Assembly: GCF_046119375.1 (NCBI RefSeq)
Contig: NW_027362773.1
Span: 27,962,001-28,026,000 of the forward strand
DNA: 64,000 nt
Direction of reading: 5' to 3'
Origin: Phyllobates terribilis
Taxonomy: Eukaryota
Shown: piece after piece, positions 7,381 through 63,586 of the stretch
Layout: every line of letters begins with the position of its first letter
Numbering within the stretch: the stretch's first letter is position 1
Made by a program: the position numbers and the translations under genes
Notes under the pieces: model-generated
Database searches by the model: none
The model's input: only the letters and a program-made list of their open reading frames with translations
What the model was told of the DNA's origin: nothing

Positions 7381-7382
7381 GT

Positions 7383-11333: not shown

Positions 11334-11442
11334 GTATGTTTTTTTTGTACTCTGTACTAGTTCTACAAATAGAAAATGGCCCTAACAAATCTCCTTTTCT
11401 TAATGTGTTACACGACTATAATCACCTTTGTATATCCTCCAG

Positions 11443-11523: not shown

Positions 11524-11793
11524 GTAACAAAAGTTAAGATGAGTCTATTGTAAAAGCCATTGGATAGAAAACATAAATGAGTAATCTGACCACTGACACT
11601 TGTGATATTTACATACAATGCATAGGATGCCCCCAAATTTTGATAGTTTACATTCTCATTAGGAGAACAGTGGTGACACAATCCCTATTTTTCCAAGCAA
11701 AATGGCGATGACTGCTGAAAAAGGAAGAGAAACTGGAAAGACCAAGTCGGCAGTCTAATTACAGAAGCATGGCAATGGTTGGAACATGTCCTT

Positions 11794-15072: not shown

Positions 15073-16657
15073 CAGTGGGAATGGAAACTATTCAGACCCC
15101 TTTAAATTTTTCACTCTTTGTTTCATTGCAGCCATTTGGTACATTCTTAAAAGTTCATTTTTTTCTCATTAAAGTACACTCTGCACCCCATCTTGACTGA
15201 AAAAACACAGAAATGTAGAAATTTTTGCAAATTTATTAAAAAGAAAAAATGAAATATCACATGGTCATAAGTATTCAGACCCTTTGCTCAGTATTGAGCA
15301 GAAGCCCCCTTTTGAGCTAGTACAGCCATGAGTCTTCTTGGGAATGATGCAACAAGTTTTTCACACCTGGATTTGGGGATCCTCTGTCATTCTTCCTTGC
15401 AGATCCTCTCCAGTTGTGTCAGGTTGGATGGTGAACGTTAGTGGACAGCCATTTTCAGGTCTCTCCAGAGATGCTCAATTGGGTTTAGGTCAGGGCTCTG
15501 GCTGGGCCAGTCAAGAATGGTCACAGAGTTGTTCTGAAGCCACTCCTTTGTTATTTTAGCTGTGTGCTTAGGGTCATTGTCTTGTTGGAAGGTGAATCTT
15601 TGGACAAGTCTGAGGTCCAGAGCACTCTGGAAGAGGTTTTCATCCAGGATATCTCTGTACTTGGGCACATTCATGTTTCCTTCAATTGTAACCAGTCGTC
15701 CTGTCCCTGCGGCTGAAAAACACCCCCATAGCATGATGCTGCCACCACCATGTTTCACTGTTGGGATTGTATTGGGCAGGTGATGAGCAGTGCCTGGTTT
15801 TCTCCACACATACCTCTTAGAATTATCGCCAAAAAGTTCTATCTTCATCTCATCAGACCAGAGAATATTATTTCTCATAATCTGGGAGTCCTTCATGTGT
15901 TTTTGAGCAAACTCTACGCGGGCTTTCATATTTCTTGCACTGAGGAGAGGCTTCCGTCGGGCCACTCTGCCATACAGGCCGACTGGTGGAGGGCTGCAGT
16001 GATAGTTGACTTTGTGGAACTTTCTCCCATCTCCCTACTGCATCTCTGGAGCTCAGCCACAGTGATCTTGGGGTTCTTTTTTACCTCTCTCACCAAGGCT
16101 CTTCTCCCACGATTGCTCAGTTTGGCTGGACAGCCAGGTCTAGGAAGACTTCTGGTGGTCCCAAACTTCTTCCATTTAAGGATTATGGAGGCCACTGTGC
16201 TCTTAGGAACCTTGAGTAATGCAGAAATGCTTTTATAACCTTGGCCATATCTGTGCCTTGCCACAATTCTGTCTCTGAGCTCCTTGGGCAGTTCCTTTGA
16301 GCTCATGATTCTCATTTGGTCTGACATGCACTGTGAGTTGTGAGGTTATTAAACACAGCTGGACTCCAATGAAGGAGTAGAACCATCTCAAGGATCATAA
16401 GGAAATGGACAGCATGTGACTTAAATATGAGTGTCTGAGTAAAGGGTCTGAATACTTATGACCATGTGATATTTTAGTTTTTCTTTTTAAATAAATTTGC
16501 AAAAACTTCTACATTTCTGTTTTTTTCTTCAGTCAAGATGGGATGCAGAGTGTTCTTTAATGAGAAAAAAAATGAACTTTTTAGAATTTACCAAATGGCT
16601 GCAATGAAACAAAGAGTGAAAAATTTAAAGGGGTCTGAATACTTTCCGTACCCACGG
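15073..16657 (-). mobile_element. Tc1 family C (DD34E), frameshifted transposase
   Basis: TA-flanked ~200-bp TIRs; ORFs 15926-16327 (DNA-binding domain) and 15438-15965 (WSDE...QQDND-34aa-E). Confidence 0.92.
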
Positions 16658-23380: not shown

Positions 23381-24931
23381 CAGTGGGGAAAATAAGTATT
23401 TGATACACTGCAGATTTTGCATGTTTTCCCACCTACAAAGAATGGAAGGTCTGTAATTTTTATCGTGGGTGCACTTCAACTGCGAGGGTCAGAATCTAAA
23501 AATAAAAACCAGAAAATCACATTGTATGATTTTTACATAATTAAATTGCATTTTATTGCATGAAATAAGTATTTGATCACCTACCAACCAGCAAGAATTC
23601 TGTCTCTCACAGATCTGTTAGTTTTTCTTTAAGAAGCCCTCCTACCCTGCACTCATTACCTGTATTAATTGCAGCTGTTTGAACTCGTTACCTGTATAAA
23701 AGACACCTGTCCACACGCTCAATCACACTCCAACCTCTCCACCATGGCCAAGACCAAATAGTTGTCTAAGGACACCAGGGATAAAATTGTAGACCTGCAT
23801 AAGGCTTTGATGGGCTACAGCACAATAGGCAAGCAGCTTGGTGAGAAGGCAACAACTGTTGACGCAATTATTACAAAATGGAAGAGACATAAGATGACTG
23901 TCAATCTTCCTCAGTCCGGGACTCCATGCTAGATCTCGTCACGTGGGGTAAGGATGATTCTGAGAAAGGTCAGGAATCAGCCCAGAACTACTAGGGAGGA
24001 ACTGGTCAATGACCTGAAGAGAGCTGGGACCAAAGTCTCAAACATTACCGTTAGTAACAGTACGCAGTCACGGATTAAAATCCTGCAGGGCATGCAAGGC
24101 CCCCCTTCTCACGCCTGCACATGTCCAGGCCAGTTTGAAGTTCGCAATGACCATCTGGATGATCCAGAGGAGTCATGGGAGAAGGTCATGTGGTCAGATG
24201 AGACCAAAATAGAACTCTTTGGTATCAACTCCACTCACCGCGTTTGGAGGAAGGATGAGTACAACCCAAAGAACACTGTCCAAACCGTGAAGCATGGTGG
24301 GGGAAACATGATACTTGGGGTGCTTTTCTGCAAAGGGGACAGGACAACTATATCGAAGGGAGGATGGATGGGGTTATGTATCGCAAGATTTTGCCCAACA
24401 TCTTTCACTCAGTAAGATCATTGAAGAGGAGTAGTGGTTGGGTTTTCCAGCATGACAATGACCCGAAACACACAGCCTGGGCAACTAAGGAGTGTCTCCG
24501 TAAGAAGAATTTCAAGGTCCTGCAGTGGCCTAGCCAGTCTCCAGACCTGAACCTAATAGAAAATCTTTGGAGGGAGCTGAAACTCAATGTTGCCCAGCGA
24601 CAGCCCCAAAACCTGAAAGATCTGGAGATCTGTATGGAGGAGTGGGCCAAAACCCCTGCTGCAGTGTGTGCAAACTTGGAAACGTCAGTAATTGCAAACA
24701 AAGGTTTCTCTACCAAATATTAAGTTCTGTTTTTCTATTGTATCAAATTATTTTCATTTTATAGCATGAAATGTATTTAAAAAAATAAAAAAATCATACA
24801 ATGTGTTTTTTTTTTTTTCACACTGTCTCACAGGTGAAGTGTACCTACGATAAAAATTAGACTTCCATTCTTCGTAGGTGGGAAAACTTGCAAAATTGGC
24901 AGTGTAACAAATACTTTTTTTCCCCCCACTG
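23381..24931 (+). mobile_element. Tc1 family D (DD34E), decayed transposase
   Basis: TA|CAGTGGGGAAAA...CCCCACTG termini; ATG at 23744 ([19 protein letters not shown]); QHDND-34aa-E; multiple stops and frameshifts. Confidence 0.92.
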
Positions 24932-27677: not shown

Positions 27678-29576
27678 CCCTAGAAAGCATACCTGGAGCC
27701 TCGCAGGCCTGCTACGTAACATGTTTTCTATTTTCTGCAAGATTACTTTAGTTAGAATTTTGAAACTCTAGGTATTCCTCAGGTATATAGTTGTTAGTAA
27801 TTTCCAGTTCATACATTTTTATGTTATAGGCCTTTCGGTAAAACAACTCTTTTTTGGGACTACCCCATATTCACATACCTGGGGCCTTTTAGGCCTGTAC
27901 TTGGTTTACATGTGATCTTCAGTCTTTTTGTCTGTACTGTTACTTAGAAGGAAAACATATCGCTTCCGGAAGAAAAAAAAACATGGAAAAATATAAAAGG
28001 AACTATATGGTTATATTGCCCTTACTCTTCTGGTAGGGTGTACAAAATCATACAAAGTTCCAATCAGAATTATTTCTGAACCCTTTTTCAGATCCACACT
28101 ATAAAGCTACAATGTCAGTCAATAGATTTGAGAATATTTGGAGAAGCCTTCATTTTGATAAGAGAACTTGTCCTGTGAGGTTGGAAACAGATAAATTATC
28201 CCCTATTAGCTACATCTGGAATCTTTTCATCAAAAACTGTACAAAGCTTTACCATTCTAATTACAATGACAGCGGATGAGCAACTTCTTGCCTTTAGGGG
28301 ACATTGCAAATTCATTCAGTATATGCCCAGTAAACCTGCCAAGTATGGCATAAAGATTTTCTGGATGTGCGATTCTACAAGCTATTATGGCATGAATGGT
28401 CTGATTTACTGTGGCAAAGAAGCTGATGCTCCAGTCCAGAAAGACCTGTGTTCTGACATCGTAAAAAAAATTGCAGTACCAATTTTCAATTCTGGAAAAA
28501 AAATATAACAATGGACAACTACTTTACCAATCTGGAACTGGGCAAATTTTTGCTTCAGAAAAACTCACTTGTTGGTACTATGAGGCCAAACCACCGCAAA
28601 AGTCCTCCAATCATGAAGCACAATCCCAAGCGACCACTTTGAGAAGGTCTTTGGTTTCTGCAATCAAGCAACAATGGTATCTTATAAAGCAAAGAAAGAA
28701 AAATCTGTGATATTACTGAGTACAATGCATCATGATGGAAGTATTGACACCGATGACTGGAAACAAGCCTGAAATCATACTGCATTATAATAAAACAAAA
28801 GGAGGTGTGGACAAGATGGATGAAATGATTGGAGAGTATTCGTGCAAGAGGCAGACAAAATGTTGGCCTGTAGTTTTTTTTTTTTTTTTTTTTTATATCC
28901 TTGATGTGTCAGCCCTCAATAGCTATATTGTTTATAGTGAAACTCATCCAGTATTCCATGCCAACAGGAAGGACAAGAGATGTCTATTCTTGACGGAACT
29001 TTGCTATGAACTTTTGATGTGTACCATGGAGCGAAGCAACACGAAAAGCTTGCCAAGGCAAATTACAGAAGCTATGATCCGATGTGGTATAAATTTTCAG
29101 GAACATCCAGAGCCAAGTAGGGGGGAAAAAAAAAAAAAAAAAAAAAAAAAAAAAGCGGTTATATTTGTCCAGCAAAGAAGGCAAGGAAATCTGAGCGTTT
29201 CTGTACTACTTGTGGACAAAGTGTCTGCAAGGAACATTCTTCTGAAAAAATGTGAAAATTTTTGGGGTAATCAGTAAAGTTGTAAAGGAAAGTTTTTGAA
29301 AAGAAATATTACTGCACCATGTTTACTACAACTTTTATATAAAAAAAACTTTGACAAAAAAAAAATTAAATATCTATATATAGAATGCATATATTGGGCA
29401 TTTTAAGATGGTGTAATTACTTTTGTTTTATGCACATTATAATGTTTTAAAATATTCACATCTCAAATAAACTTTGAGAAGTATTTCCATTTGAGTTACT
29501 CCATGTTATTTGCACACAGGCCTAAAAGGCCCCAGGTATGTGAAAGTGTAGATTTCTATGGTTGCGCGTTCTAGGG
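27678..29576 (+). mobile_element. piggyBac transposon, decayed
   Basis: TTGA|CCCTAGAA...TTCTAGGG|TTAA; perfect 29-bp subterminal inverted repeats at 27870-27898 and 29516-29544; frameshifted transposase with TADEQLLAFRG, TMDNYFT and YNKTKGGVDKMD motifs and a C-terminal Cys-rich domain (ICPAKK...CTTCGQSVCKEH). Confidence 0.9.
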
Positions 29577-40644: not shown

Positions 40645-42271
40645 TACAGACCAAAAGTTTGGACACACCTTCTCATTTAAAGATTTTTCTGTATTTTCAT
40701 GACTCTGAAAATTGTACATTCACACTGAAGGCATCAAAACTATGAATTAACACATGTGGAATTATATACTTAACAAAAAAGTGTGAAACACCTGAAAATA
40801 TGTCTTATATTCTAGGTTCTTCAAAGTAGCCACCTTTTGCTTTGATGACTGCTTTGCACGCTCTTGGCATTCTCTTGATGAGCTTCAGGAGGTAGTCACT
40901 GGAAATGGTCTTCCAACAATCTTGAAGGAGTTCCCAGAGATGCTTAGCACTTGTTGGCCCTTTTGCCTTCACCCTGCGGTCCAGCTCACCCCAAACCATC
41001 TCGATTGGGTTCAGGTCTGGTGACTGTGGAGGCCAGGTCATCTGGCGTAGCACCCCATCACTCTCCTTCTTGGTCAAATAGCCCTTACACAGCCTGGAGG
41101 TGTGTTTGGGGTCATTGTCCTGTTGAAAAATAAAAGATGGTCCAACTAAACGCAAACCGGATGGAATAGCATGCCGCTGCAAGATGCTGTGGTAGTCATG
41201 CTGGTTCAGTATGCCTTCAATTTTGAATAAATCCCCAACAGTGTCACCAGCAAAGCACCCCCATACCATCACACCTCCTCCTCCATGCTTCACGGTGGGA
41301 ACCAGGCATGTAGAGTCCATCCGTTCACCTTTTCTGCGTCGCACAAAGACACAGTGGTTGGAACCAAAGATCTCAAATTTGGACTCATCAGACCAAAGCA
41401 CAGATTTCCACTGGTCTAATGTCCATTCCTTGTGTTCTTTAGCTCAAACAAGTCTCTTCTGCTTGTTGCCTGTCCTTAGCAGTGGTTTCCTATCAGCTAT
41501 TTTACCATGAAGGCCTGCTGCACAAAGTCTCCTCTTAACAGTTGTTGTAGAGATGTGTCTGCTGCTAGAACTCTGTGTGGCATTGACATGGTCTCTAATC
41601 TGAGCTGCTGTTAACCTGCGATTTCTGAGGCTGGTGACTCGGATAAACTTATCCTCAGAAGCAGAGGTGACTCTTGGTCTTCCTTTCCTGGGGCGGTCCT
41701 CATGTGAGCCAGTTTCTTTGTAGCGCTTGATGGATTTTGCAACTGCACTTGGGGACACTTTCAAAGTTTTCCCAATTTTTCGCACTGACTGACCTTCATT
41801 TCTTAACGTACTGATGGCCACTCGTTTTTCTTTACTTAGAATTTGTATTATGGCAAGAAAAAAGCAGCTAACAGTCTATTCAGTAGGACTATCAGCTGTG
41901 TATCCACCAGACTTCTGCACAACACAACTGATGGTCCCAACCCCATTTATAAGGCAAGAAATCCCACTTATCAAACCTGACAGGGCACACCTGTGAAGTG
42001 AAAACCATTTCCGGTGACTACCTCTTGAAGCTCATCAAGAGGATGCCAAGAGTGTGCAAAGCAGTCATCAAAGCAAAAGGTGGCTACTTTGAAGAACTTA
42101 GAATATAAGACATATTTTCAGTTGTTTCACACTTTTTTGTTAATTATATAATTCCACATGTGTTAATTCATAGTTTTGATGCCTTCAGTGTGAATGTACA
42201 ATTTTCCTAGTCATGAAAATACAGAAAAATCTTTAAATGAGAAGGTGTGTCCAAACTTTTGGTCTGTACTG
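40642..42271 (-). mobile_element. Tc1-like family B (DD38E, Intruder-type), copy 1
   Basis: CAGTACAGACCAAAAGTTTGG TIRs (~200 bp); second D to E spacing is 38 residues; one TGG>TGA stop; start codon inverted. Confidence 0.92.
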
Positions 42272-42358: not shown

Positions 42359-43878
42359 CAGTACAGACCAAAAGTTTGGACACACCTTCTCATTTAAAGA
42401 TTTTTCTGTATTTTCATGACTTTGAAAATTGTACATTCACACTGAAGGCATCAAAACTATGAATTAACACATGTGGAATTATATACTTAACAAAAAAGTA
42501 TGAAACAACTGAAAATATGTCTTATATTCTAGGTTCTTCAAAGTAGCCACCTTTTGCTTTGATGACTGCTTTGCACACTCTTGGCATTCTCTTGATGAGC
42601 TTCAAGAGGTAGTCACCGGAAATGGTTTTCACTTCACAGGTGTGCCCTGTCAGGTTTAATAAGTGGTATTTCTTGCCTTATAAATGGGGTTGGGACCATC
42701 AGTTGTATTGTGCAGAAGTCTGGTGGATACACAGCTGATAGTCCTACTGAATAGACTATTAGAATTTGTATTATGGCAAGAAAAAAGCAGCTAAGTAAAG
42801 AAAAACGAGTGGCCATCATTACTTTAAGAAATGAAGGTCAGTCAGTCCGAAAAATTGGGCAAACTTTGAAAGTGTCTCCAAGTGCAGTTGCAAAAACCAT
42901 CAAGCGCTACAAAGAAACTGGTTCACATGAGGACCGCCCCAGGAAAGGAAGACCAAGAGTCACCTCTGCTTCTGAGGATAAGTTTATCCGAGTCACCAGC
43001 CTCAGAAATCGCAGGTTAACAGCAGCTCAGATTAGAGACCAGGTCAATGCCACACAGAGTTCTAGCAGCAGACACATCTCTACAACAACTGTTAAGAGGA
43101 GGCTTTGTGCAGCAGGCCTTCATGGTAAAATAGCTGCTAGGAAACCACTGCTAAGGACAGGAAACAAGCAGAAGAGACTTGTTTGGGCTAAAGAACACAA
43201 GGAATGGACATTAGACCAGTGGAAATCTGTGCTTTGGTGAAGCATGGAGGAGGAGGTGTGATGGTGTGGCGGTGCTTTGCTGGTGACACTGTTGGGGAAT
43301 TATTCAAAATTGAAGGCATACTGAACCAGCATGGCTACCACAGCATCTTGCAGCGGCATGCTATTCCATCCGGTTTGCGCTTAGTTGGACCATCATTTAT
43401 TTTTCAAGAGGACAATGATCCTAAACACACCTCCAGGCTGTGTAAGTGCTATTTGACCAAGAAGGAGAGTGATGGGGTGCTACGTCAGATGACCTGGCCT
43501 CCACAGTCACCAGATCTGAACCCAATCGAGATGGTTTGGGGTGAGCTGGACCACAGAGTGAAGGCAAAAGGGCCAACAAGTGCTAAGCATCTCTGGGAAC
43601 TCCTTCAAGATTGTTGGAAGACCATTTCCGGTGACTACCTCTTGAAGCTCATCAAGAGAATGCCAAGAGTGTGCAAGCCGTCATCAAAGCAAAAGGTGGC
43701 TACTTTGAAGAACCTAGAATATAAGACATATTTTCAGTTGTTTCACACTTTTTTGTTAATTATATAATTCCACATGTGTTAATTCAGAGTTTTGATGCCT
43801 TCAGTGTGAATGTACAATTTTCATAGTCATGAAAATACAGAAAAATCTTTAAATGAGAATGTGTGTCCAAACTTTTGG
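42359..43878 (+). mobile_element. Tc1-like family B (DD38E), copy 2
   Basis: ORF 42773-43240 (MARKKQLSKEKR...); 100-bp deletion at 43238/43239 removes the first catalytic D; the last 9 bp of the right TIR are missing. Confidence 0.92.
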
Positions 43879-48065: not shown

Positions 48066-49708
48066 ATAAACTATATAAAAAGACACATGCATGTTTTTCT
48101 CAATATCTGACAAGAAATCAGAATAAACCTTTCCCGTTTTAGGTCAATTAGGATTACCATAATCTTTAATATTTGCCAAATGCCATAATAATGAGAGAGA
48201 ATGTTTTAAGGCATTTTTATTACTTACTACAAAGTCAGAAGTTTACATACATTTCATTAGTATTTGGTACCATTGCCCTTAAACTGAATGACTTGGGTCA
48301 GACGTTTGGGATATCCTTCCACAAGCTTCTCACAATAGTTGGTCGGAATTTGGGCCCATTCCTCCTGACAAAACTGGTGTAACTGATCCAGGTTTGTAGG
48401 TCGCCTTGCTCACAACTGCCTTTTTAGCTTTGCCCATACATTTTCAATAGGATTGATATCAGGGCTTTGTGATGGCCACTCCAAAGCATTGACTTTGTTA
48501 TCCTTAAGCCACGTTGTTAGCATTTTGGCAGTATGCTTCTGGTCATTGTCCATTTGGAAGACGCATTTCCGCCCAAGCTTTAACTTCCTGGCTGATGTCT
48601 TGAGATGTTGCTTCAGTATTGCCACATAATCTTCTTTTCTCATGATGACATCTATTTTGTGAAGTGCACCAGACCCTCCTGCAGCAAAACAACCCCACAG
48701 CATGATGCTGCCACCCCTGTGTTTCACAGTTGGGATGGTGTTTTTAGGCTTCCAAGCTTCTGCCTTTTTCCTCCAAACATAACAATGGTCATTATGCCAA
48801 AAAAGTTAAATTTTAGTTTCATCAGACCACAGGACATGTCTACAAAAATTAAGGTCTATGTTCCTGTGTGCATTTGCAAGCATTAATCTGGCTTTTTTTT
48901 ATCATTCTTTTGGAGTATTGGCTTCTTCCTGGCAGAGTGGCCTTTCAGCCCATGTTGATACAGTACTCATTTGACTGTGGTTATTGACACAATCTTACCA
49001 GCTTCCGCCATCATCTTCACAAGGTCTTTTGCTTTTGTCCTTGGGTTGATATGCACATGTCGGACCAAAGCTCGTTCATCTCTGGGACACAGAATCCGTC
49101 TCCTTCCTGAGCGGTATGATGGCTGGACATTCTCATCTTGTTTGTACTTGCGTATAATTGTTTGTACAGATGAGCGAGGCACCTTCAGGTATCTTGAAAT
49201 TGTACCCAAGGATGAGCCAGACTTGTGCAAGTCCATAATTCTCTTCCTGATATCTTGGCTGATTCCTTTAGACTTTCCCGTGATGCTACACATGAAAGAA
49301 GCAGTGTGTTTCAGGTGTGCATTAAAATACACACATGCGTGTGTCTCTAATTAACTTAGATGTTGCCAAAAAAACTATCAGAAACTTCCAAACACATGAC
49401 ATCATCATATGGGCAGTTCAGAATTGTTTAAAGGCATAGTAATGTATGTAAGCTTTTGACTTTGCAGTAAGTAATAAAAATGCCTTAAATCATTCTCTCT
49501 CTCCATTATTCTGGCATTTGGCAAATATAAAAAATTATGGTAATCCTAATTGACCTAAAACGGGAAAGGTTTATTCTGATTTCATGTCAGACATTGAGAA
49601 AAACATTCATATGTGTCTTTTTATATAGTGTAGGTAAACTTCTGGTTTCATCTGTATATATATATATTTCCTCTATCCTGGTATTTATGTCCCTCATCCT
49701 GGTATATA

Positions 49709-51315
49709 CAGTGACATGTAAAAGTTTGGGCACCTCTGGTTAAATTTACTGTAATTGTGAACAGTTAAGCAAGTTGAAGACAACATTTTCTCAAAAAGGC
49801 CTAAAGTTAAAGATGACGCATTTCCTTTGTATTTTAGGCAAAAAATAATATATTGTCATATTTTACATTTTAAAAATTACAAAAAGTAAAATGGGCCGAT
49901 GCAAAATTTGGGCACCCTTGGAGATTTGTGTGCTCAGATAACTTTGACCAAGGTTTCAGATCTTAAATAGCCTGTTAGGGTTATGGCTTGTTCACTATCA
50001 TCGTTAGGAAAGGCCAGGTGATGTAAATTTCCCAGCTTTATATAATCCCAGTCTCCTATAACCTTGTGCCAAAAATCAGCAACCATGGGTTCTTCTAAGC
50101 AGCTGCTTAGCACCCTGAAAATGAAAATGGTGGAGGCCCACAAAGCAGAAGAAGGCTATAAGAAGCTAGCAAATTGTTTTCAAGTTGCCATTTCCTCAGT
50201 TTGAACTGTTATTAAGAAATGGCAGGTAACATGAACAGTGCAGGTCAAGATAAGATCTGGAAGACCAAGCAAAATTTCAGTGAGAGCTGCTCATAGGCTT
50301 GCTAGAGAGGCAAATCAGAACCTCCGCTTGACTGCAAAAGACCTTCAAAAACATTTAGCAGATTCTGGAGTTGTGGTACATTGTTCTACTGTTCAGAGAC
50401 ACCTGCACAAATATGGCTTTTATGGAAGAGTCATCAGAAGAAAACCTCTCCTGCATCCTCACCATAAAATTCGGAAGTATGCAAAAGGACATCTAAACAA
50501 GCCTGATGCATTTTGGAAACAAGTCCTGTGGACCAATGAGGCTAAAATAGAACACTTTAGCTACAATGATCAATGGTATGTGTGGAGAAAAAAGGGCACA
50601 GAATGTCAGGAAAAGAACATCTCGCCAACCCTTAAGCATGGGGGTGGATCAATCATGCTTTGGGGTTGTGTTGCAGCCAATGGCACGTGGAACATTTCAT
50701 GGGTAGAAGGAAGAATGGATTCAATTAAATTTCATCAAATTGTTGATGCAAACATAACACCATCTGTAAAAAAGCTGAAGGTGAAAAGAGGATGGCTTCT
50801 ACAAATGGATAATGATCCTAAACACACGTGAAAATCCACAATAGACGACATCAAAAGGCGCAAGCTGAAGGTTTTACAATGGCCCTCACAGTCCCCTGAT
50901 CTGAACATCATTGAAAATCTCTAGCTAGACCTCAAAATAGCAGTGCATGCATGACAACCCAGGAATCTCACAGAACTGGAAGAATTTTCCAAGGAAGAAT
51001 GGATGAAAATTCTTCAAACAAAAAGTGAAAGACTCTTGTCTGGCTACAAAAAGCGTTTATCAGCTGTGATACTTGCAAAAGAGGGTGCCACTAGGTACTA
51101 ATCATGCAGGGTGCCCAAACTATTGCATTGGCCCATTTTACTTTTTGTAATTTTTAAAATGTAAAAGATGACAATATTTTTTTTTCCCAAAATACAAAGG
51201 AAATGTGTCATTTTTAACTTTAGGGCTTTTAGAGATAATTTCATCTTCAACTTGCTTAACTGTTCACAATAACAGTAATTTTGACCAGGGGTGCTCAAAC
51301 TTTTACATGCCACTG
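49709..51315 (+). mobile_element. Tc1 family F (DD34E), decayed transposase
   Basis: TA|CAGTGACATGTAAAAGTTTG...CTTTTACATGCCACTG|TA; ATG at 50085; QMDND-34aa-E; several stops. Confidence 0.92.
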
Positions 51316-51477
51316 TAAGCCCCTTATCCTGGCCCCATCCTGATATGTATATCCCCCATCCTGGTATATGTTCCCCATTCTCCTGCTGTTCTTTAATTTA
51401 TAGAAAAAAATAAACCATAATGCTCACCAGGGGCACTCCTCAAGCCCCATAGCAGAAGTATAATGCACTCTCCATAG

Positions 51478-53445
51478 TCCTCCATATAATACAGTGCACA
51501 GCCCATAGACCTCCATACAGTATAATGCACAGCCCATAGATCTCCATACAATATAATGCACAGCCCATAGTCATCCATGTAGTGTAATGCACAGCCCGTA
51601 GTCATCCATGTAGTATAATGCACAGCCCATAGTCATCCAAGTAGTATAATGCACAGCCCATAGTCCTCCATATAGTATAATGCATAGTCCATAGTCATCC
51701 ATGTAGTATAATGCATAGTCCATAGTCATCCATATAGTATAATGCACAGCCCATAGTCATCCATGTAGTATAATGCACAGCCCATAGTCATCCATGTAGT
51801 ATAATGCACATCCCATAGCCATCCATGTAGTATAATGTACAGCCCATAGTCATCCATGTAGTATAATGCACAACACATAGTCATCCATGTAGTATAATGC
51901 ACATCCCATAGCCATCCTTGTAGTATAATACACAGCCCATAGTCATCCATGTAGTATAATGCACATCCCATAGTCATCCATTTAGTATAATGCACATCCC
52001 ATAGCCTTCCATGTAGTGTAATGCACAGCCCATAGTCATCCATGTAGTGTAATGCATAGTCCTCAGTCATCCAAGTAGTATAATGCACAGCCCATAGTCC
52101 TCCATATAGTATAATGCACAGCCCATAGTCCTCCATATAGTATAATGCACAGACCATAGTCATCCATGTAGTATAATGCATAGTCCATAGTCATCCATGT
52201 AGTATAATGCACAGTCCATAGTCCTCCATATAGTATGATGAACAGCCCATATTCATCCATGTAGTATAATGCATAGTCCATAGTCATCCATGTAGTATAA
52301 TGCACAGCCCATAGTCATCCATGTAGTATAATGCACAGCCCATAGTTATCCATGTAGTATAATGCACATCCCATAGTCATCCATGTAGTATAATGCACAG
52401 CCCATAGTTATCCATGTAGTATAATGCACATCCCATAGCTATCCATGTAATGTAATGCAAAGCCCATAGTCATCCAATTAGTATAATGCACAGCCCATAG
52501 TCATCCAGTTAGTATAATGCACAGCCCATAGTTCTCTATATAGTATAATGCACAGCCCATAGTCATCCATGTAGTATAATGCATAGTCAATAGTCATCCA
52601 TGTAGTATAATACACAGCCCATAGTCATCCATGTAGTATAATGCACAGCCCATAGTTATCCATGTAGTATAATGCACAGCCCATAGTCATCCATGTAGTA
52701 TAATGCATAGTCAATAGTCATCCATGTAGTATAATACACAGCCCATAGTCATCCAGTTAGTATAATGCACAGCCCATAGTCCTCTATATAGTATAATGCA
52801 CAGCCCATAGTCATCCATGTAGTATAATGCATAGTCAATAGTCATCCATGTAGTATAATGCACAGCCCATAGTCATCCATGTAGTATAATGCATAGTCAA
52901 TAGTCATCCATGTAGTATAATACACAGCCCATAGTCATCCATGTAGTATAATGCACAGCCCATAGCCATCCATGTAATATAATGCACAGCCCATAGTCAT
53001 CCATGTAGTATAATGCATAGTCAATAGTCATCCATGTAGTATAATACACAGCCCATAGTCATCCAGTTAGTATAATGCACAGCCCATAGTCCTCTATATA
53101 GTATAATGCACAGCCCATAGTCATCCATGTAGTATAATGCATAGTCAATAGTCATCCATGTAGTATAATGCACAGCCCATAGTCATCCATGTAGTATAAT
53201 GCATAGTCAATAGTCATCCATGTAGTATAATACACAGCCCATAGTCATCCATGTAGTATAATGCACAGCCCATAGCCATCCATGTAATATAATGCACAGC
53301 CCATAGTCATCCATGTAGTATAATGCATAGTCAATAGTCATCCATGTAGTATAATACACAGCCCATAGTCATCCATGTAGTATAATGCACAGCCCATAGT
53401 CATCCATGTAGTATAATGCACAGCCCATAGCCATCCATGTAGTAG
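51478..53445. repeat. 31-bp minisatellite with higher-order structure
   Basis: About 63 units of CCCATAGTCATCCATGTAGTATAATGCACAG; variant units recur at 310-bp spacing. Confidence 0.95.
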
Positions 53446-55768
53446 TATGGTCACCATGTACTCATTGATTTAAAAAAAAAAAAATACATACTCACCTTCC
53501 CCTCGTTTCCCACCGCGCGGTATCCTCTTTTGAAGCTGGCAGCTGACTTCAGCGTGCGAGCGTATAGTGTCACTGCCATGCGCCCCTGGTCACATGCATG
53601 CCGACGTCAGCTGCTGGCTTCTGATTGGTCGGCAGCATGTATTGTCGCGCACGGACTCGATGGGTCTGTGTGCCGCAATACACTTCAGCTGAATGTGCGT
53701 TCGAGGACGCACATCCAGCTGAAGTATATGCTGACGTTGGCTGGCTCCTCACCCGCCGGGCCCGGTTGCAGCGGCGACCACTACGACCGCAGTAGTTACG
53801 CCCCTGTGCCAAAACACAAGGAACACACCTGCCCGCCCCAAGTTGGAAACTGTTCATGCATTTTGCATTTTGACCTCATAGGTATTAGGATTTTCTGTAG
53901 TGTTGGGCCATGAAATTGAAAACTTATATTCTTAAAAAAAAACATTTTGTTTTCATTATTTATTTTTTTCCCTAAGAAATAATAAGAGAAAAAGCACACT
54001 GCCAGTTGTTGCACAATTACTCCCACCTCAATGATTTTTGTGTCTTTGGGCTGTGAATGAAAAATTACATTTGTTCTAGTAATATGTAGATTTAGCCAAA
54101 TTTTTTCATTTCCAAAATGGGTAATAAGAAAAAATTGTATCCCACAAGTTCAGCAATGCCCCATATGTGGCTATGCACTACTGTATGGGTGAACAGCAGG
54201 GCTCAGAAGGGAAGGAGCGCCAGTTGGCCATTGAAGTGCAATTTTGGCTGGATCAATTTTTGCCCCTGGGATACCATTATAATGGAAATCCCTATAAGTG
54301 ACCCCATTTTGGAACCTACACACCTCCAAGAATTAATTCAGGGGTGTAATCAGTATTTTTATTCCACAGCTTTTTCACATATTTTTTTTTTTATCACTGG
54401 GCTCTGAAAAAGCCGAGCCAAACAGAGCCAAATCCAAGAGTGTGCTGACTGCCCACTGTTAGGATTCAGCATTATACAGTGCTGCCAAAAGTTAACACTG
54501 ACCCTGAAAAGCCCTCCAGTATTGGGGATTGGGGAGTATTGTAGGTCATTTACATTTTGAATAATTATTTGAAGTTTAAACAAGAAAAATGATCTTGATC
54601 TCGGAGGAAGACGAAACAAGTACTGATCTAAATAAAGCCTCTGACTGACTGGATGGACTTGTTTCTTGTTTTTTTAGCTACAGTACTATTAGCATAAGTT
54701 CATGATCAGCTTTACAGTCAACTATCATAAATTTCCTGAATGTCGCCCTGTATAAATACCAGGCAGAACTATTGCCTAATTGGATTCCAGGGCTTTGTTG
54801 AAAGAGATAAGTCTGAAGTGAACAAGCGCTATAAGATCATAGCGGAGGATTACATGGTACTCATTGCTCAGCAATGGTTAGCGCTAAACTATATGGACGG
54901 GATTCTGGGTCAACACGTCATCAAGAATATATAGTTATAACATGACTAGCCAAGCAATTTAGAAGCCGTTATTATTAGTAAGCAGACGTAATTATCTCCT
55001 TGAGAACAACAAGTAGAGTTACCTGGTATCTGCATAGTTATTATGTGCCTCTCTCAAGACATCAGCTTTCCATATGTCTTGTAGGGGCTCATTCAGAAGT
55101 CAGTTTTTCGCATACTAATTACTCCTATATGGATAGTTACTGCGTTCACATGTATTTTTGTGGAGGCAACAAAACTTGGAGACTTGTCTGATTTTAATCC
55201 AAGTCATGTATCAAACTTGCCCATGCAAATCTATAGCACTCAGACGCCACATGTGTACTCTCCATTTTTCCCTGACTGATAGAAGAAGCTGGAGTAACCT
55301 CCATCGGTTTTTTTTTTTGCATATAAGAAAAATTGATAAAACTCTAAGAAAACCAGACAACACTGATCCAAAACTCTGATCCAAAACTCTGATGATAATA
55401 ATTTTTTTTTTTTTTGCGTACATGAAAAATCTCTCAGTTCTGAGTTGGGCCTTAGACTGCTGAACACACCTGTGTATTATATGGTCACCCATTCATTAGA
55501 GGGGGCTGAATGTAATACTACATTTCTCCAATAGTTTATCGTGCAGTTGATCGTCAGCGTGGCTTCAATCTGAGTAGCGTCCAAATGGGACAAACCTTTA
55601 ATGGAAGCCTACAGTTTTGAGTTTTATGAGTGCAAATTTCCTCTTCAGAGATGAAGAGGACTAGAACTGTAGCGCCGCCTATTCGAAGTAGCAATCCTAA
55701 AAGTCAATATCGACCCTTTAACGAGCCTTGAAATATGACTTAGGATAAAAGTCAAATCAGAATCTTAA

Positions 55769-55813
55769 TTTGTAGACACAGTGTTTCAGGGTATTGCTCC
55801 TCGTCAGTGCAAA
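55769..55813 (-). ncRNA. Minimal type I hammerhead ribozyme motif (left arm)
   Basis: UUUGCA-CUGACGA-GGAG(CAAUA)CCCU-GAAAC-ACUGU-GUC^-UACAAA; intact catalytic core; one mismatch in stem I and G.U closing stem II. Confidence 0.75.
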
Positions 55814-55904
55814 GTATGAGATCTGATTTGGCTAGGTGAGAGACATAAGACTGGGATCAAAGGGGAGTCTTAAGCCTCTCACCTAGCCAAATCAGATCTC
55901 ATAC

Positions 55905-55949
55905 TTTGCACTGACGGGGAGCAATACCCCGAAACACGGTGTCTGAAAA
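55905..55949 (+). ncRNA. Minimal type I hammerhead ribozyme motif (right arm)
   Basis: UUUGCA-CUGACGG-GGAG(CAAUA)CCCC-GAAAC-ACGGU-GUC^-UGAAAA; A9>G change in the core. Confidence 0.65.
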
Positions 55950-57112
55950 TTGAGATTCTGATTTGGCTTTTATCCTAAGTCATAAGGCAAGGCTCGTTAA
56001 AGGATCGATATTAACTTTTAGGATTGCTACATCCAATAGGTGGCGCTAGAGTTCTAGTCCTTTTCCTCTCTGAAGAGGCAATTTGCATATTTAATTTCCC
56101 AGAGGAGCATGCATGGCATATAAGTCTCCTCACTCTGACATGCCAGGCCTGGCTTGTCACTCTCCACAAGGAGAAACGTTACCCCTTAGATCCGAGTTTT
56201 ATAAGAAAATTGTATTTTGTCCTTTTTTTAATTTCTAATTATAAATGGCATAACACAGCTAAATTATATGCTAGAGGAATATGCACTGTGCCAAAGAACC
56301 ACTGGACAGGACCTCTCATTACATTGGCATCCACAGCTTTTTCATCGACATTAGTGGCTTAACAATTATGCCATTTTGTAGCGTACCTGTCACTTCTCCC
56401 TCTGTTTTGGGGTCTTCTTCATGATATCATCATGGACTGCATAGTTTAATAATAATAATTTTTATTTTTATAGAGCCAACATATTCCGCAGCACTTTACA
56501 TTTTAGAGGGGATTGTACAGACCACAAAGACATTACAGAATAACACATAACTCAGATACCAAAAGGAGTGAGAGCCCGGCTCGCAAGCTACAATCTATGA
56601 GGACGTCTTTGTCAGGAGCTCAGTGCTCACTCCTGATTATATTAATCTGTTGTTTTACTGGTTGTATTCAGGTCCTGAAATATTCTCTGTTCATTGTCTT
56701 CCGCTTTAGTTTGTTCCTTTGGTCTGATCATCCTCTGGCTGTCGTCCCTGGCTCACATTCTTGTCTACATTTCTAGATTTCCTCATTTATAACCTTATTT
56801 ATGTTTTACAAAAATACTTATATGAACCCACCCTAGTATAACGTGAGTCGACCTTCATGCCTGGGTTATTCTGCCGTTATTATATCCATGCACCCACCTT
56901 GATCGAAGACCACTCCTTTACACTTTACAGCCCAATTTAAGCTTCATCTATCTGATTATGCCAGAGAATATTCATTCCAATAAAGATCCATTTTACTTTT
57001 TAGGTCGGCTAACATTTGATCGCGTGCCAAATACAGGTGCATCTCACAAAATTAGAATATCATCAAAAATTTAATTTATTTCAGTTCTTCAATACAGAAA
57101 GTGAAACTCATA

Positions 57113-58751
57113 CAGTACAGACCAAAAGTTTGGACACACCTTCTCATTTAAAGATTTTTCTGTATTTTCATGACTATGAAAGTTGTACATTCACACTGAA
57201 GGCATCAAAACTATGAATTAACACATGTGGAATTATATACTTAACAAAAAAGTGTGAAACAACTGAAAATATGTCTTATATTCTAGGCTCTTCAGAGTAG
57301 CCACCTTTTGCTTTGATGATTGCTTTGCACACTCTTGGCATTCTCTTGATGAGCTTCAAGTGGTAGTCACCGGAAATGGTTTTCACTTCACAGGTGTGCC
57401 CTGTCAGGTTTAATAAGTGGGATTTCTTGCCTTATAAATGGGGTTGGGACCATCAGTTGTGTTGTGCAGAAGTCTGGTGGATACACAGCTGACAGTCCTA
57501 CTGAATAGACTGTTAGAATTTGTGTTATGGCAAGAAAAAAGCAGCTAAGTAAAGAAAAATGAGTGGCCATCATTACTTTAAGAAATGAAGGTCAGTCAGT
57601 CCGAAAAATTGGGAAAACTTTGAAAGTGTCCCCAAGTGCAGTTGGAAAAACCATCAAGCGCTACAAAGAAACTGGCTCACATGAGGACCGCCCCAGGAAA
57701 GGAAGATCAAGAGTCACCTCTGCTTCTGAGGATAAGTTTATCCAAGTCACCAGCCTCAGAAATCGCAGGTTAACAGCAGCTCAGATTAGAGACCAGGTCA
57801 AAGCTACACAGAGTTCTAGCAGCAGACACATCTCTACAACAACTGTTAAGAGAAGACTTTGTGCAGCAGGCCTTCAAGGTAAAATAGCTGCTAGGAAACC
57901 ACTGCCAAGGACAGGCAACAAGCAGAAGAGACTTATTTGGGCTAAAGAACACAAGGAATGGACATTAGACCAGTGGAAATCTGTGCTTTGGTCTGATGAG
58001 TCCAAATTTGAGATCTTTGGTTCCAACCACCGTGTATTTGTGCGACGCAGAAAAGGTGAACGGATGGACTCTACATGCCCGGTTCCCACCGTGAAGCATG
58101 GAGGAGGAGGTGTGATGGTGTGGGGGTGCTTTGCTGGTTACACTGTTGTGGATTTATTCAAAATTGACGGCATACTGAACCAGCATGACTACCACAGCAT
58201 CTTGCAGCGGCATGCTATTCCATCCGGTTTGCGTTTAGTTGGACCATCATTTATTTTTCAACAGGACAATGACCCCAAACACACCTCCAGGTTGTGTAAG
58301 GGCTATTTGACCAAGAGGGAGAGTGATGGGGTGCTATGCCAGATGACCTGGCCTCAACAGTCACCAGACCTGAACCCAATCGAGATGGTTTGGGGTGAGC
58401 TGGACCGCAGAGTGAAGGCAAAAGGGCCAACAAGTGCTAAGCATCTCTGAGAACTCCTTCAAGGTTGTTGGAAGACCTTTTCCGGTGACTACCTCTTGAA
58501 GCTCATCAAGAGCATCAAGAGAATGCCAAGAGTGTGCAAAGCAGTCATCAAAGCAAAAGGTGACTACTTTGAAGAACCTAGAATATAAGACATATTTTCA
58601 GTTGTTTCACACTTTTTTGTTAAGTATATAATTCCACATGTGTTAATTCATAGTTTTGATGCCTTCAGTGTGAATGTACAATTTTCATAGTCAGGAAAAT
58701 ACAGAAAAATCTTTAAATGAGAAGGTGTGTCCAAACTTTTGGTCTGTACTG
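57113..58751 (+). mobile_element. Tc1-like family B (DD38E), copy 3, nested in the family A TIR
   Basis: Complete TIRs and TA TSD; ATG at 57527; stops at codon 12 (CGA>TGA) and at 58448-58450; no frameshift. Confidence 0.93.
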
Positions 58752-60699
58752 TATATTATATAGAGTCATTACAAACAGAGTGATCTATTTCAAGTGTTTA
58801 TTTCTCTTAATGTTGATGATTATGGCTTACAGCTAATGAAAACACAAAAGTCATTATCTCAGTAAATTAGAATAATTAACAAAAAACACCTGCAAAGGCT
58901 TCCTAAGCATTTAAAAAGGTCCCTTAGTCTGTTTCAGTAGGCTCCACAATTATGGGGAAGACTGCTGACTTGACAGATGTCCAGAAGGCAGTCATTGACA
59001 CACTCCACAAGGAGGGTAAGCCGCAAAAGGTCATTGCTAAAGAAGCTGGCTGTTCATAGAGTGCTGTATCCAAGCATATTAATGGAAAGTTGAGTGGAAG
59101 GAAAACGTGTGGTAGAAAAAGGTGCACAAGCCCCTGGGATAACCGCAGCCTTGAAAGGATTGTTAAGAAAAGGCCATTCAAAAATTTGGGGGAAATTCAC
59201 AAGGAGTGGACAGCTGCTGGAGTCATTGCTTCAAGAACCACCACACACAGACGTATCCAGGACATGGGTTACAAGTGTCGCATTCCTTGTGTCAAGCCAC
59301 TCATGACCAATAGACAACGCCAGAAGCGTCTTACCTGGGCCAAGGAGAAAAAGACCTGGACTGTTGCTCAGTGGTCCAAGGTGTTGGTTTCAGATGAAAG
59401 TAAATTTTGCATTTCATTTGGAAATCAAGGTCCCAGAGTCTGGAGAAGAGTGGAGAGGCCACAATCCAAGCTGCTTGAGGTCTAGTGTGAAGTTTCCACA
59501 ATCAGTGATGGTTTGAGGAGCCATGTCATCTGCTGGTGTAGGTCCACTGTGTTTAATCAAAACCAAAGTCAGCGCAGCCATCTACCAGGACATTTTAGAG
59601 CACTTCATGCTTCCCTCTGCCGACAAGCTTTTTGGCGATGGAAATTTCATTTTCCAGCAGGACTTGGCGCCTGTCCACACTGCCAAAAGTACCAATACCT
59701 GGTTTACAAACAACAGTATCACTGTGCTTGACTGGCCAGCAAACTCGCCTGACCTTAACTCCATAGAGAGTCTATGGGATATTGTCAAGAGGAAGATGAG
59801 ACACCAGACCCAACAATGCAGATAGGGGTGGATTAAGAGTAGCCAGGACCCCGGGCAGTTTAGAAGGCATGGGGCCCCCCTCCGCTGACAGAAAAAGCGG
59901 TGAGCGTATCGCGGCGCGCACATTTTTCCCTTATGTACAGAACTATATATAACATAGCGTTATACATAATAGGGCAGGGGTGGAAAATTAGTTTTCCAGA
60001 GGGGCCACATGAGAAACCATGACTGTTGTGGAGGCCGAACAATAGGCTGAAATTAATTCTGCCCAACATTTACATATTAATTATAATTATTTTTAATATT
60101 ATTTGTGTCACTTATTATTGAGCAGAATTAATATGCTGACATAACCTATAAACAGTACGAGCCCCCACATAGCCCCCTCAATCAACAACCATAGCAATCA
60201 ATCTATGGGGCCTTCATACATGTATACCATAAAAAAAAAAAAAAACAACCCTAAATAAATTCTCTTTACGTGCTCAGATAACGTGTTATCCCTGCACGCT
60301 CCTGTGTTATCAGAGTATCTTGTAGTGCTCGGATAATATATTCGAGTCCCTGCGAATTCATGTTATGTTTTCGTCTGTTAGACACCACAACACTTAACAA
60401 ACAGGTAATCCCCGCATGTGTTGTATCTGTCTAACAGCAGATACAACACTATATATATAGACCCTTTTTGACCTGAACAGTTGAGTACTTAGCTTAATGG
60501 CGTCTTCTTCAGACGCTTTTTCTCCTCCTTTGGTCATTCAGGGATTCGTCAGGGAATTCCTTCAATCAGGACAAGAAAAGGAGACCATAAGCCGAATTGT
60601 AATGAGGATAACAGCTCACAGGTCCAGGCAATATGCCCCCACAAAGTCTCTACATACAATATTAGCCCCCACACAGCCCCCTACATACAATACGAGCCC

Positions 60700-61325: not shown

Positions 61326-61404
61326 TGGAGCCCCCAAACCCACAGGATAACATTAATCTGTAGCCCCCAAGATAATATACTATGCAGCCACTAGCAGCAC
61401 CCTT

Positions 61405-62085
61405 GCTCACATATCCTGCGGCCCCCCCATAGTCACATGCCCTGCGGCCTCCCCTTGGTCACATACCCTGCGCCCCCCCCCTTGGTCACATACCCTGCGG
61501 CTCCACCATAGTCACATACCATGCGGCCCCCTCATAGTCACATACCCTGCGGTCCCACCTTCGTCACATACCCTGTGACCCCCCCTTGGTCACATACCCT
61601 GCAGCCCTCCCTTGATCACATACCCTGCAGCCTCCCCTTGGTCACATACCTTGCAGCCCCCCCTTGGTCACATACCCTGCAGCCCCCATAGTCACATACC
61701 CTGCGGCCCCCCATAGTCACAATCCCTGTGGCCCCCCCATGGTCACATACCCTGCGGCCCGCACCACAGTCACATACCCTGCGGCCCCCCCTTGGTCACA
61801 TACACTGCAGCCTCTTCTTGGTCACATACCCTGCAGCCCCCCCTTTGTCACATACCCTGCAGCCCCCCCACATGATCACGTACCTTGTGGCCCTCCATGG
61901 TCACATACCCTGCAGCCCCCCCTTGGTCACAAACCCTGCAGCCCCCCCATGGTCACATACCCTGTGGCCCCCCATGGACACATACCTTGCCCCCCCACAT
62001 GGTCTCATGCCCTCTGGCCCCCATGGTCACATGCCCTGTGGCCCCCCATGGTCACATACCCTGTGGCCCCCCATGGTGACATGCC
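61405..62085. repeat. C-rich ~26-bp minisatellite
   Basis: Recurrent GGTCACATACCCTGC(A/G)GCCCCCC units. Confidence 0.9.
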
Positions 62086-62488
62086 CAAGTCACTCTCACA
62101 GAACAGGATGCAGCTATTAGCTTCTTACCACCACCAGGAGCTGCCAGCAGAAGGGAAGAGGAACCAAGGCAGCAGAAGACGAGCAGGGAGGTGGAGCCAA
62201 CACTGAGCTGGAGCTGCAGTGCAGGAGCCGACAGCAGGGAATCCCAGGGGCTCTGCGAGTGAGTACAGAAGACGTGGGCACGCAGAGCGCACTTCGTGTT
62301 CTCGTCTGCTACACTGTCATGCGGGCAGTGCGCGCACATAACATTATAATGAGGGCAATCTGGCCATGGGCCCCCCCGGAGCCCCGAGCCCCGGGCGGTA
62401 GCCCAGATTGCCCTCATTATAATCCGCCTATGAATGCAGACGAGCTGAAGCTGCTATCAAAGCAACCTGGGCTTCCATAACACCTCAG

Positions 62489-63586
62489 TGTAGCGTCGGC
62501 GTCCCTGCCTCCTGCTAGGCAGGGACGCCGTTCCCCTCACCTCTCCGCTCCGTGCCCGGCGTCTTCCTCCCGCTCTGCTGGCAGCGCGCGCTGCTTCCCG
62601 GCCTCTGTGCTTAGGGCACGCGCCCGCGCTCCCCCTCTCTTAAAGGGGCCGCGCGTGCCGTCCTAAGGAGTCCCCGGCCAATGGCCGGAGGACCTCACCA
62701 TATATAAGGCACCTCCTCCAAAATGGAGGTGCCCGAGCAATGTTGTTGCAAAGCCTTTCAACTCTGCTTCAGCCCTCAGGTCCCGTTACCAGTTACCTGC
62801 CAGATTCCTGCTTGTTACCTGCCTGATACCTGCATGATATCTGCTTACCTGCTTGCTATCCTGTGGTCTGACAGTCTGCCTACCAGCACCTGCCAGTCTG
62901 TCTATGGATCAGTTCGCCTGCGGACCAGGAAGTACCTGCCAGATACCTGCCTGATACCTGCCTGCCTGTCCAGAGACTCTTACTCGCTCACCTGGGAGCG
63001 CTCACCTGCTACCTGCCTGCTAGCCTACCTGGAGGCTTAGCCGTCACTTGCTGTGACCACCTGCCTGTCCAGAGACTCTTACTCGCTCACCTGGGAGCGC
63101 TCACCTGCTACCTGCCTGCTAGCCTACCTGGAGGCTCTGCCGTCACTTGCCGTGACCACCTGCCTGTCCAGAGGCTCTTGCCCGCTCACCTGGGAGCGCT
63201 CAGCTGCTACCTGCCTGCTAGCCTACCTGGAGGCTCTGCCGTCACTTACCGTGACCACCTACCTGTCCAGAGACTCTTGCCCGCTCACCTGGGAGCGCTC
63301 CCTGCTACCTGCCTGCTAGCCTATCTAGAGACTCTTTCCCTGCTGTCACTTGCCGTGACCACCTGCCCGTCTAGAGACTCTTTCCCTGCTGTCACTTGCC
63401 GTGACCACCTGCCCGTCTAGAGACTCTTACCCTGCTGTCACTTGCCGTGACCATCCGCCTGTCAAGAGACTGTCCCCGTCACTTGCTGTGACTACCTGCC
63501 CGCCTTCCCTGGGAGCCACCCGCTTCCTTACAAGGACTGCCCCTTTGTATAGTTGCTCAGAGGCTCCACCTCCCAGACCCGTTACA
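62489..63586. mobile_element. Solo LTR with internal tandem repeats
   Basis: TGTAGCG...CGTTACA termini; 5-bp TSD CTCAG at 62484-62488 and 63587-63591; TATA-like TATATAAG at 62701; 99-bp units at 62961, 63060, 63159 and 63258 and 46-bp units at 63325, 63371 and 63417. Confidence 0.85.

Follow-up and report, generated by a model that had tools for sequence, protein, structure and literature searches.

Apparent hammerhead retrozymes of Phyllobates terribilis end at two fixed sites and insert in the manner of Penelope-like elements

Introduction

Animal retrozymes were defined in PMC7229834, which proposed Penelope-like elements (PLEs) as their movers, and a bioRxiv preprint (10.64898/2026.07.22.740005) argues for a PLE-retrozyme link from co-occurrence and phylogeny; in its available text, 24 of 57 Xenopus retrozyme families are homologous to Repbase elements, nearly all of them PLE termini. 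PLEs for their part are described as inserting with an inverted repeat and a 30-40-bp tail (PMC3846280; 10.1101/2021.04.23.441226), and a PLE protein of the anole nicks and extends both strands, with two internal RNA starts bounding the tail and, in vitro, no strand difference in the start site (PMC11167929, in the portions available). Here we analyze a 563-bp element at positions 55631-56193 of a 64,000-nucleotide stretch of the genome of Phyllobates terribilis (assembly GCF_046119375.1, contig NW_027362773.1, positions 27,962,001 to 28,026,000, forward strand), which we call the window throughout. We conclude that the element is probably a decayed, non-autonomous hammerhead retrozyme insertion, made of a 329-nt unit and integrated in trans by a Penelope-like reverse transcriptase (RT)/GIY-YIG protein. 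The family to which it belongs bears on two questions, namely what moves animal retrozymes and how the inverted ends and tail of PLEs arise.

Two forms of type I hammerhead matter for the comparison, as given in the available text of PMC4209133. The canonical form has a helix I of 6 bp, a helix II of 4 bp, and a helix III of 1-2 bp with a palindromic loop. The minimal form of PLEs has a helix II of 7-8 bp, a helix I of 4-5 bp, and an extra nucleotide before helix II, and opposite-strand pairs of minimal hammerheads are noted there as well.

Results

The window element joins two arms of one unit head-to-head

The palindromic anatomy given in the initial annotation holds: the arms (55631-55852 and 55866-56087) are 222 nt each with 21 mismatches between them, a gap of 13 nt separates them, a one-sided tail of 106 nt (56088-56193) follows, and the whole lies between 12-bp direct repeats that differ at one position (55619-55630 and 56194-56205). 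The predicted fold is very stable (z = -35.6; 0 of 100 shuffles were equally stable), and the left flank (55440-55630) is single-copy in the host genome. Two details read differently once the repeated unit, or monomer, is known (329 nt; window 55866-56193 plus one base, with M1 at 55866). The tail, which had been called unique, is the final third of the monomer, and the 13-nt "loop", which had been taken for a spacer, is the reverse complement of the monomer's last 13 nt and belongs to the left arm. We therefore re-read the element as two arms joined head-to-head, one of 235 nt on the minus strand (3′ end at M222) and one of 328 nt on the plus strand (3′ end at M328). Its features, including the target-site duplication (TSD), are:

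55619-55630 (+): left TSD, 12 bp, from direct-repeat comparison
55631-55865 (-): A arm (235 nt), a minus-strand copy in ribozyme sense that has its 3′ end at site A (M222) and takes in the 13-nt "loop" in its 5′ part
55750-55833 (-): left hammerhead with extended helix I; core intact, with a stem I mismatch, a G.U closure, and a stem II A.C mismatch; predicted cut 55775/55774
55866-56193 (+): B arm, 328 nt, M1-M328, a nearly complete single monomer with its 3′ end at site B
55885-55968 (+): right hammerhead, core with A9G; predicted cut 55943/55944
Outer parts of the right hammerhead (+): extension 55885-55901/55951-55968; internal loop 55902-55904; helix I 55905-55910/55944-55949
Inner parts of the right hammerhead (+): core 55911-55917; helix II 55918-55921/55927-55930; GAAAC 55931-55935; GUC 55941-55943
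56059-56078 (+): small predicted hairpin about 10 nt 5′ of site A, a possible recognition element; conserved, with a z of -0.7 that is not beyond shuffles
56081-56096 (+): site A, family-wide 3′-end hot spot (M218-231), overlapping the octamer ATTTGCAT at 56081-56088
56088-56193 (+): one-sided tail, monomer sequence from site A to site B
56161-56174 (+): small predicted hairpin with an ACAA loop, 10-19 nt 5′ of site B, a possible recognition element
56185-56193 (+): site B, second 3′-end hot spot, mostly M320-330
56194-56205 (+): right TSD, 12 bp, with one mismatch to the left copy

No open reading frame (ORF) of at least 120 aa overlaps the element, and five PLE proteins compared with the window by tblastn gave no match.

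A genome search with the element returned 126 matches from the 40 places scored among 9,631 first-look candidates in the 10.6-Gb host genome; the number of candidates is not a copy number. The search for copies and arrays that the initial annotation had proposed thus revealed a dispersed family, mostly of 0.3-4 units per copy, in which the monomer also occurs head-to-tail, a single arm holding direct runs as long as about 2.8 units. The monomer has the short unit (150-450 bp), head-to-tail repeats, lack of an ORF, and low GC by which non-LTR (long terminal repeat) retrozymes are recognized, in agreement with the earlier proposal of an ORF-less hammerhead retroelement family.

Copies end at two sites, and the two sites are paired

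To describe the family we drew six sets of loci. Set 1 (23 distinct loci) came from a whole-element query, is biased to the layout of the window copy, and was left out of the main count. Sets 2-6 came from short internal queries of three subfamilies, with query loci and repeats of known places removed, and yielded 130 loci (29, 29, 27, 29, and 16, the last from 40 places), two of which represent one duplicated insertion. A 3′ end in ribozyme sense counted as A if it lay in M215-240 and as B if it lay in M305-328 or M1-8; the limit of the B window had been moved from M3 to M8, since alignments overrun into the next unit.

Among these 130 loci, 168 of 194 ribozyme-sense 3′ ends fell at A or B, sites that lie about 100 nt apart and whose windows cover 18% of the circle. 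By class, 47 loci were A+B, one was B+B (L134, checked), none was A+A, 38 were single-arm A, 21 were single-arm B, and 23 were other. Hence 47 of the 48 head-to-head copies with both ends at fixed sites paired A with B (p ~2e-13 versus free pairing). A further A+B copy, with a perfect 12-bp duplication, was found independently in a search for GIY-YIG proteins. A TSD was detected in 30 of 44 A+B copies of sets 2-5 and in 3 of 3 in set 6, as compared with 7 of 150 flank-swapped controls.

The duplications of 42 A+B copies ranged from 8 to 21 bp, with 33 within 11-15 bp. Such variable lengths agree with the target-primed reverse transcription (TPRT) suggested for the element earlier, and the fixed short TSDs of a DNA transposon, which had been named as an outcome that would speak against it, are absent. 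Targets were AT-rich (69% versus 59% in the flanks). Target and RNA overlapped by a mean of 2.0 nt at site A (0.7 expected) and 1.3 nt at site B (0.4 expected). The TSD finder inflates these values, and in the window copy there is no such overlap.

Inverted arms with a one-sided tail between two fixed sites are the "inverted repeat plus one-sided tail" signature of PLEs, and the earlier suggestion of a retrozyme/Penelope link is upheld by this pattern. The palindrome itself is not the form of the family, as the initial annotation had implied: the inner junctions are scattered and differ from copy to copy, and 59 of the 130 sampled loci are single-armed. There is no master palindromic element; the palindrome arises anew at each insertion, as a recurring by-product of two-site priming.

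Three observations on individual loci may be added. The insertion at L138, 114 bp long and flanked by a duplication of 15 bp, consists of the A-B interval only, as if a B-primed cDNA had stopped at site A. An arm made solely of the A-B interval is also present at L134:1494-1593. At L217-L220, retrozyme copies with identical junctions have multiplied as passengers in larger duplicated, satellite-flanked units.

Arms have no fixed 5′ end

We examined 5′ ends in 122 arms from simple one- and two-segment copies of sets 2-5 together with L103. These ends were dispersed around the unit; 67 of the 122 arms read through the cleavage site, 35 exceeded 340 nt, and the longest reached about 900 nt. There was no excess of ends at the cleavage site (6 versus 7.8 expected) or at a putative start of the small nuclear RNA (snRNA) type (10 versus 9.3 expected), and the 5′ ends of B arms did not accumulate beside site A. 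Long arms wrapped around into the next unit and never into coding sequence. The arm ends fit either a circle or an uncleaved multimer as the template, and the pattern does not tell the two apart.

The two arms of a copy resemble each other more than they resemble arms of other copies (25 loci; distance 0.118 versus 0.154) and share 2.4 times more non-consensus bases, which argues for a single template source behind each palindrome; gene conversion at a later time may be an alternative reason for the likeness. Small overlaps occur at many inner junctions, and no fixed palindrome was found there. The arms break nesting by more than 20 nt in 15 of the 38 copies that are layout-neutral, and in 18 of 52 when all copies are counted. 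Arm lengths correlate negatively (rho -0.40, p 0.013), which may reflect sampling bias. Two other regularities were discarded: a pile-up of arm lengths at one unit, apparent in set 2, vanished in sets 4-5, and a halt of both arms at the same template position was seen in only 8 of 38 copies (p 0.48).

The ribozyme is a canonical hammerhead that is decayed in the window

A scan for hammerhead-type motifs on both strands of the window returned exactly two matches, at 55911-55943 (+) and 55807-55775 (-). The architecture comprises a helix I of 6 bp, a helix II of 4 bp, a short helix III, an internal loop, and a 17-bp extension of helix I. The ribozymes had been described as minimal, but the length of helix II, the 6-bp helix I with its extension, and the lack of an extra nucleotide set them apart from that form; judged by sequence, the family ribozyme is a canonical type I hammerhead under the definition of PMC4209133.

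The lesions that the initial annotation named are confirmed. The right arm has A9G (55917) and a mismatch in stem I (55946), and the left arm has a G.U closure and a different stem I mismatch. The consensus of the two arms, which the annotation took to restore the full core, leaves in place a stem II A.C mismatch (55920/55798) common to both arms; the family majority repairs it. That majority, drawn from 147 segments at 52 loci, shows the CUGANGA/GAAA/GUC core intact, N7 and the center of helix III being least conserved; the core is kept in 33 of 73 aligned genomic copies. Across these 73 copies helices I, II, and III and the 17-bp extension were 91.4% paired, with eight pairs changed on both sides. 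The covariation score was 0.084 versus 0.072 (1 of 500 shuffles, which ignore relatedness) and gives moderate support to the hammerhead fold. A G-C to C-G swap in helix II was present in four rows of the alignment and also in reads of a related organism, on both sides at matching frequency (for example 73/271 and 72/266; not phased). Core conservation and stem covariation, whose loss had been proposed as grounds for abandoning the ribozyme, are thus both retained in the family.

An Rfam covariance search of window positions 53000-59000 listed no hammerhead family at E<=10, nor did a search of six family loci at E<=1, so that the identification rests on sequence and the family alignment. These searches returned only generic hairpin matches to microRNA (miRNA) families below the gathering score; we regard these as generic hairpin resemblance and rejected a miRNA identity.

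For the majority monomer, predicted probabilities were 0.86-1.0 for helix I and 0.65-0.68 for helix II. With regard to cleavage as a dimer, the two helix III strands were predicted to form a duplex of -7.4 kcal/mol. For a transcript of the whole window element, from either strand, helices I and II had a predicted probability of about 0. The antisense arm comes first on both strands, contrary to the earlier expectation of a working ribozyme from either one, and because the two ribozymes lie on opposite strands no cis dimer is possible. With both ribozymes mutated and predicted to be locked in the 222-bp hairpin, the window copy has probably lost ribozyme activity, and its transcript, if one is made, would be a long double-stranded RNA hairpin.

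Related transcripts and the octamer at site A

All four polyA RNA runs of a related organism contained related sequence (858-2,858 reads each). The reads were mostly less than 95% identical and therefore do not come from the window locus. Between 73% and 81% of them continued into unlike sequence, and in two runs the dominant read direction suggests antisense pieces of host transcripts. Mixed loose read ends at 56089-56091 repeated site A in the related organism, while read ends at 56190, near the end of the compared stretch, are weak evidence. A tail-to-tail joint of site A and site B on opposite strands (56086 to 56188) was also seen, in 23, 16, and 1 reads of three runs; it may reflect the insertion of one copy at another's end, or just one unusual locus.

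The octamer at site A is conserved and identical over 10 nt to that of the host genome's U1 promoter. An snRNA-type promoter is cited for newt satellite 2 in the available text of PMC2220036. We considered such a promoter for the monomer and did not adopt it: the octamer is present, but the best match to the U1 proximal element, U1 being the sole promoter compared, was not above chance (82 of 200 shuffles), and, as noted above, the 5′ ends of arms lie at the putative start no more often than expected. Older subfamilies carry a short variant resembling the U1 proximal element near site B (56161-56174; L225), which was not significant. The host genome also has at least 40 U1 snRNA genes arrayed in tandem (C1:534628252-534671568), the repeat length being about 1,079 bp.

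PLEs of the same genome

The host genome is rich in GIY-YIG PLEs (150 scored of 4,370 candidates). One PLE ORF combines RT motifs, a cysteine/histidine-rich linker, and GIY-YIG, and we read it, from its sequence and following the Craig et al. preprint, as Neptune-type. Among seven inverted PLE regions, two had one-sided tails (83 and 85 nt) together with perfect duplications of 13 and 14 bp, and two more had tails of 148 and 276 nt with duplications of 15 and 14 bp; the best of 42 swapped controls for the duplications scored 9. In several of these PLEs a minimal hammerhead precedes the short end by about 130-150 nt. The hammerheads of the Neptune-type PLEs have a U3.A8-type core and a palindromic helix III (L091/L092, L093, L094, L096/L097, and L100). 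The tails of Neptune-type PLEs share a motif resembling a splice donor, and several PLE regions adjoin long minisatellite arrays.

We looked for a partner among 50 PLE-bearing stretches (30 GIY-YIG loci and 20 larger PLE regions), a small sample of the 4,370 candidates. The sole contact between monomer and PLE was one retrozyme inserted in a PLE remnant. Conversely, PLE proteins matched 4 of 169 retrozyme loci; these remnants belong to different families, and since their presence looks coincidental we rejected them as partners.

Other features of the window

Exons of a bestrophin gene (Pfam PF01062) lie at 5723-11529 (+), with further exons upstream of the window; the element is about 44 kb past the last matched exon. 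Remnants of Tc1/mariner-type transposases (HTH, DDE_3) are present at approximately 15441-16034, 23933-24720, 40808-41875, and 42755-43764, and further remnants of this type at approximately 48413-48805, 50235-50828, 57563-58447, and 59060-59482. A piggyBac-like DDE_Tnp_1_7 piece is located at 28720-29274. Minisatellite arrays occupy 1-622 (period 108), 3457-5399 (31), 51457-53444 (31), 61400-62086 (26), and 62961-63386 (99).

Discussion

Integration by a PLE protein could proceed as follows. By analogy with known retrozymes, tandem copies would be transcribed, self-cleave, probably as dimers, and circularize. The protein would bind the circle, or an uncleaved multimer, and make two staggered nicks about 11-15 bp apart, whereupon one DNA end would prime reverse transcription at site A, inside the RNA, and the other would do so about 100 nt farther downstream, at site B; the pairing of ends is seen in the copies, and the enzyme is presumed. 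The cDNAs would extend to random lengths, often past the cleavage site and beyond one unit, and would be joined head-to-head, the A-B interval remaining as the one-sided tail, a pattern that the copies display. In the window copy the A arm would then measure 235 nt and the B arm 328 nt. As to why the ends pair, we tentatively raise the possibility, which we hold at somewhat less than even, that a dimer of the PLE RT-endonuclease engages the circular ribozyme RNA asymmetrically, its subunits priming at A and at B on opposite target strands and both copying around the circle; the RNA would be recognized by structure (the hairpins 10-19 nt before the sites), with no homology to the pseudo-LTR of the partner.

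Several observations weigh against this account. Within the 50 PLE-bearing stretches, no PLE carried monomer sequence. Of the seven inverted PLE regions, two had no clear tail and one was ambiguous inside a tandem array. The family's tail, about 103 nt, is long against the 30-40 bp published for PLEs. Because the anole enzyme showed no strand difference in the available text of PMC11167929, strict A+B pairing is not predicted by that study. In sets 2-5 a TSD accompanied only 16 of 50 single-armed copies, one of these being an artefact, and most had none detectable. Core and all three helices are intact together in only 12 of 73 genomic hammerheads. Finally, no pile of read ends marked the cleavage site in the related organism's polyA reads, which are a poor test and cannot show circles.

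Other origins must be weighed against the same evidence. The unit could be the pseudo-LTR of an autonomous PLE family outside our sample and the copies 5′-truncated insertions of its RNA, as the shared end architecture and the homology of Xenopus retrozymes to PLE termini cited above would suggest. Arms of up to about 900 nt that pass into another unit and never into coding sequence argue against this, as does the scarcity of PLE proteins at retrozyme loci, where unrelated families lie beside or around independent insertions; moreover, the PLE hammerheads of this genome are of the minimal U3.A8 type, whereas that of the family is canonical. We consider this origin unlikely. The same family and enzyme might instead produce the inversion by a single priming event, fold-back self-priming, and resolution by the endonuclease, along the lines of models in the available text of PMC3846280 and the Craig et al. 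preprint. The small overlaps at many junctions and the variants shared by the arms of a copy are compatible with this, and the window copy taken alone comes within 13 nt of fitting; but fold-back requires nested arms, and the frequent violations of nesting and the lack of a fixed palindrome at junctions make it quite improbable.

A short interspersed element (SINE) driven by a long interspersed element (LINE), with ordinary twin-priming 5′ inversion, would account for 11-15-bp TSDs, AT-rich targets (69% versus 59%), and short microhomologies, all of which also suit LINE TPRT. In the LINE twin-priming model that we used for comparison, however, arms complement each other, whereas here they duplicate each other; the copies lack a poly(A) or repeat tail and are fixed at both outer ends, and the 5′ ends of B arms are not piled beside site A. 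No LINE with the terminal sequence of A or B turned up, no search having been aimed at one, and we regard this explanation as very unlikely. Least credible of all is an origin from a DNA transposon, whether a miniature inverted-repeat transposable element or a foldback element, or from a palindromic master element that amplified as a whole. The long inverted arms and the many near-full-length matches to the 563-bp layout would be expected of it, yet it is already contradicted by copy-specific junctions, variable TSD length, asymmetric ends, and tandem and single-armed copies, and by arm variants that track the copy and not the side.

The locus is probably a dead copy, and its value lies in the pattern of the family, which is insertion-level evidence: two priming sites are fixed, A+B pairing is nearly obligatory, the templates lack a fixed 5′ end, and PLEs of the same genome serve as a control. 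The asymmetric-dimer mechanism, if true, would make this genomic evidence that circles of animal retrozymes are PLE substrates and would explain the inverted-repeat-plus-tail structure of PLEs in general. A 329-nt RNA with mapped predicted start sites offers a substrate for a direct biochemical test. In the open-access literature, to which our search was confined (subscription papers and Repbase lay outside it), we found no report of a two-site end rule in retrozymes, and PMC11722881 and PMC9977147 contributed nothing to the question; in the main text of 10.64898/2026.07.22.740005 the word "tail" is absent and "inverted" occurs only in a reference.

How, then, does the family compare with described systems? 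Like the animal non-LTR retrozymes (axolotl Rtz331 and Rtz353, newt satellite 2; PMC7229834 and 10.64898/2026.07.22.740005, as far as their available text goes), it has a unit of about 330 nt without an ORF, a canonical type I hammerhead with a weak, near-palindromic helix III, head-to-tail runs, a GC content below 50%, and TSDs longer than 4 bp, a likeness to the salamander units that is one of features and not of sequence alignment. Unlike them, its copies are dispersed at 0.3-4 units, and 47 of 130 are head-to-head with two fixed ends and a tail; the available texts on animal retrozymes describe tandem repeats and solo copies, with no mention in those portions of inverted insertions or tails. 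With PLEs that carry an endonuclease (EN+), as described in the sources available to us, the family shares head-to-head inverted arms, a one-sided tail, TSDs of about 8-15 bp, two internal ends downstream of the hammerhead, and AT-rich targets. It differs from them in lacking an ORF for RT plus GIY-YIG, in having a canonical instead of a minimal hammerhead, and in arms that wrap around a circularly repeating unit. It differs also from the non-autonomous Chlamys PLEs (such as MRC1), which resemble their partners at the 3′ end and belong to a clade in which 10.1101/2021.04.23.441226 found no hammerhead. The Neptune-type PLEs of the same genome have no detectable sequence likeness to the monomer, and their hammerhead is minimal with a U3.A8-type core, but they share with it the order of hammerhead, short end, tail, and long end, the two cleanest of seven having tails of 83 and 85 nt and TSDs of 13 and 14 bp next to the family's tail of about 103 nt. 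On every sequence test applied the family is a non-LTR retrozyme; it is not an autonomous PLE, but it inserts like one.

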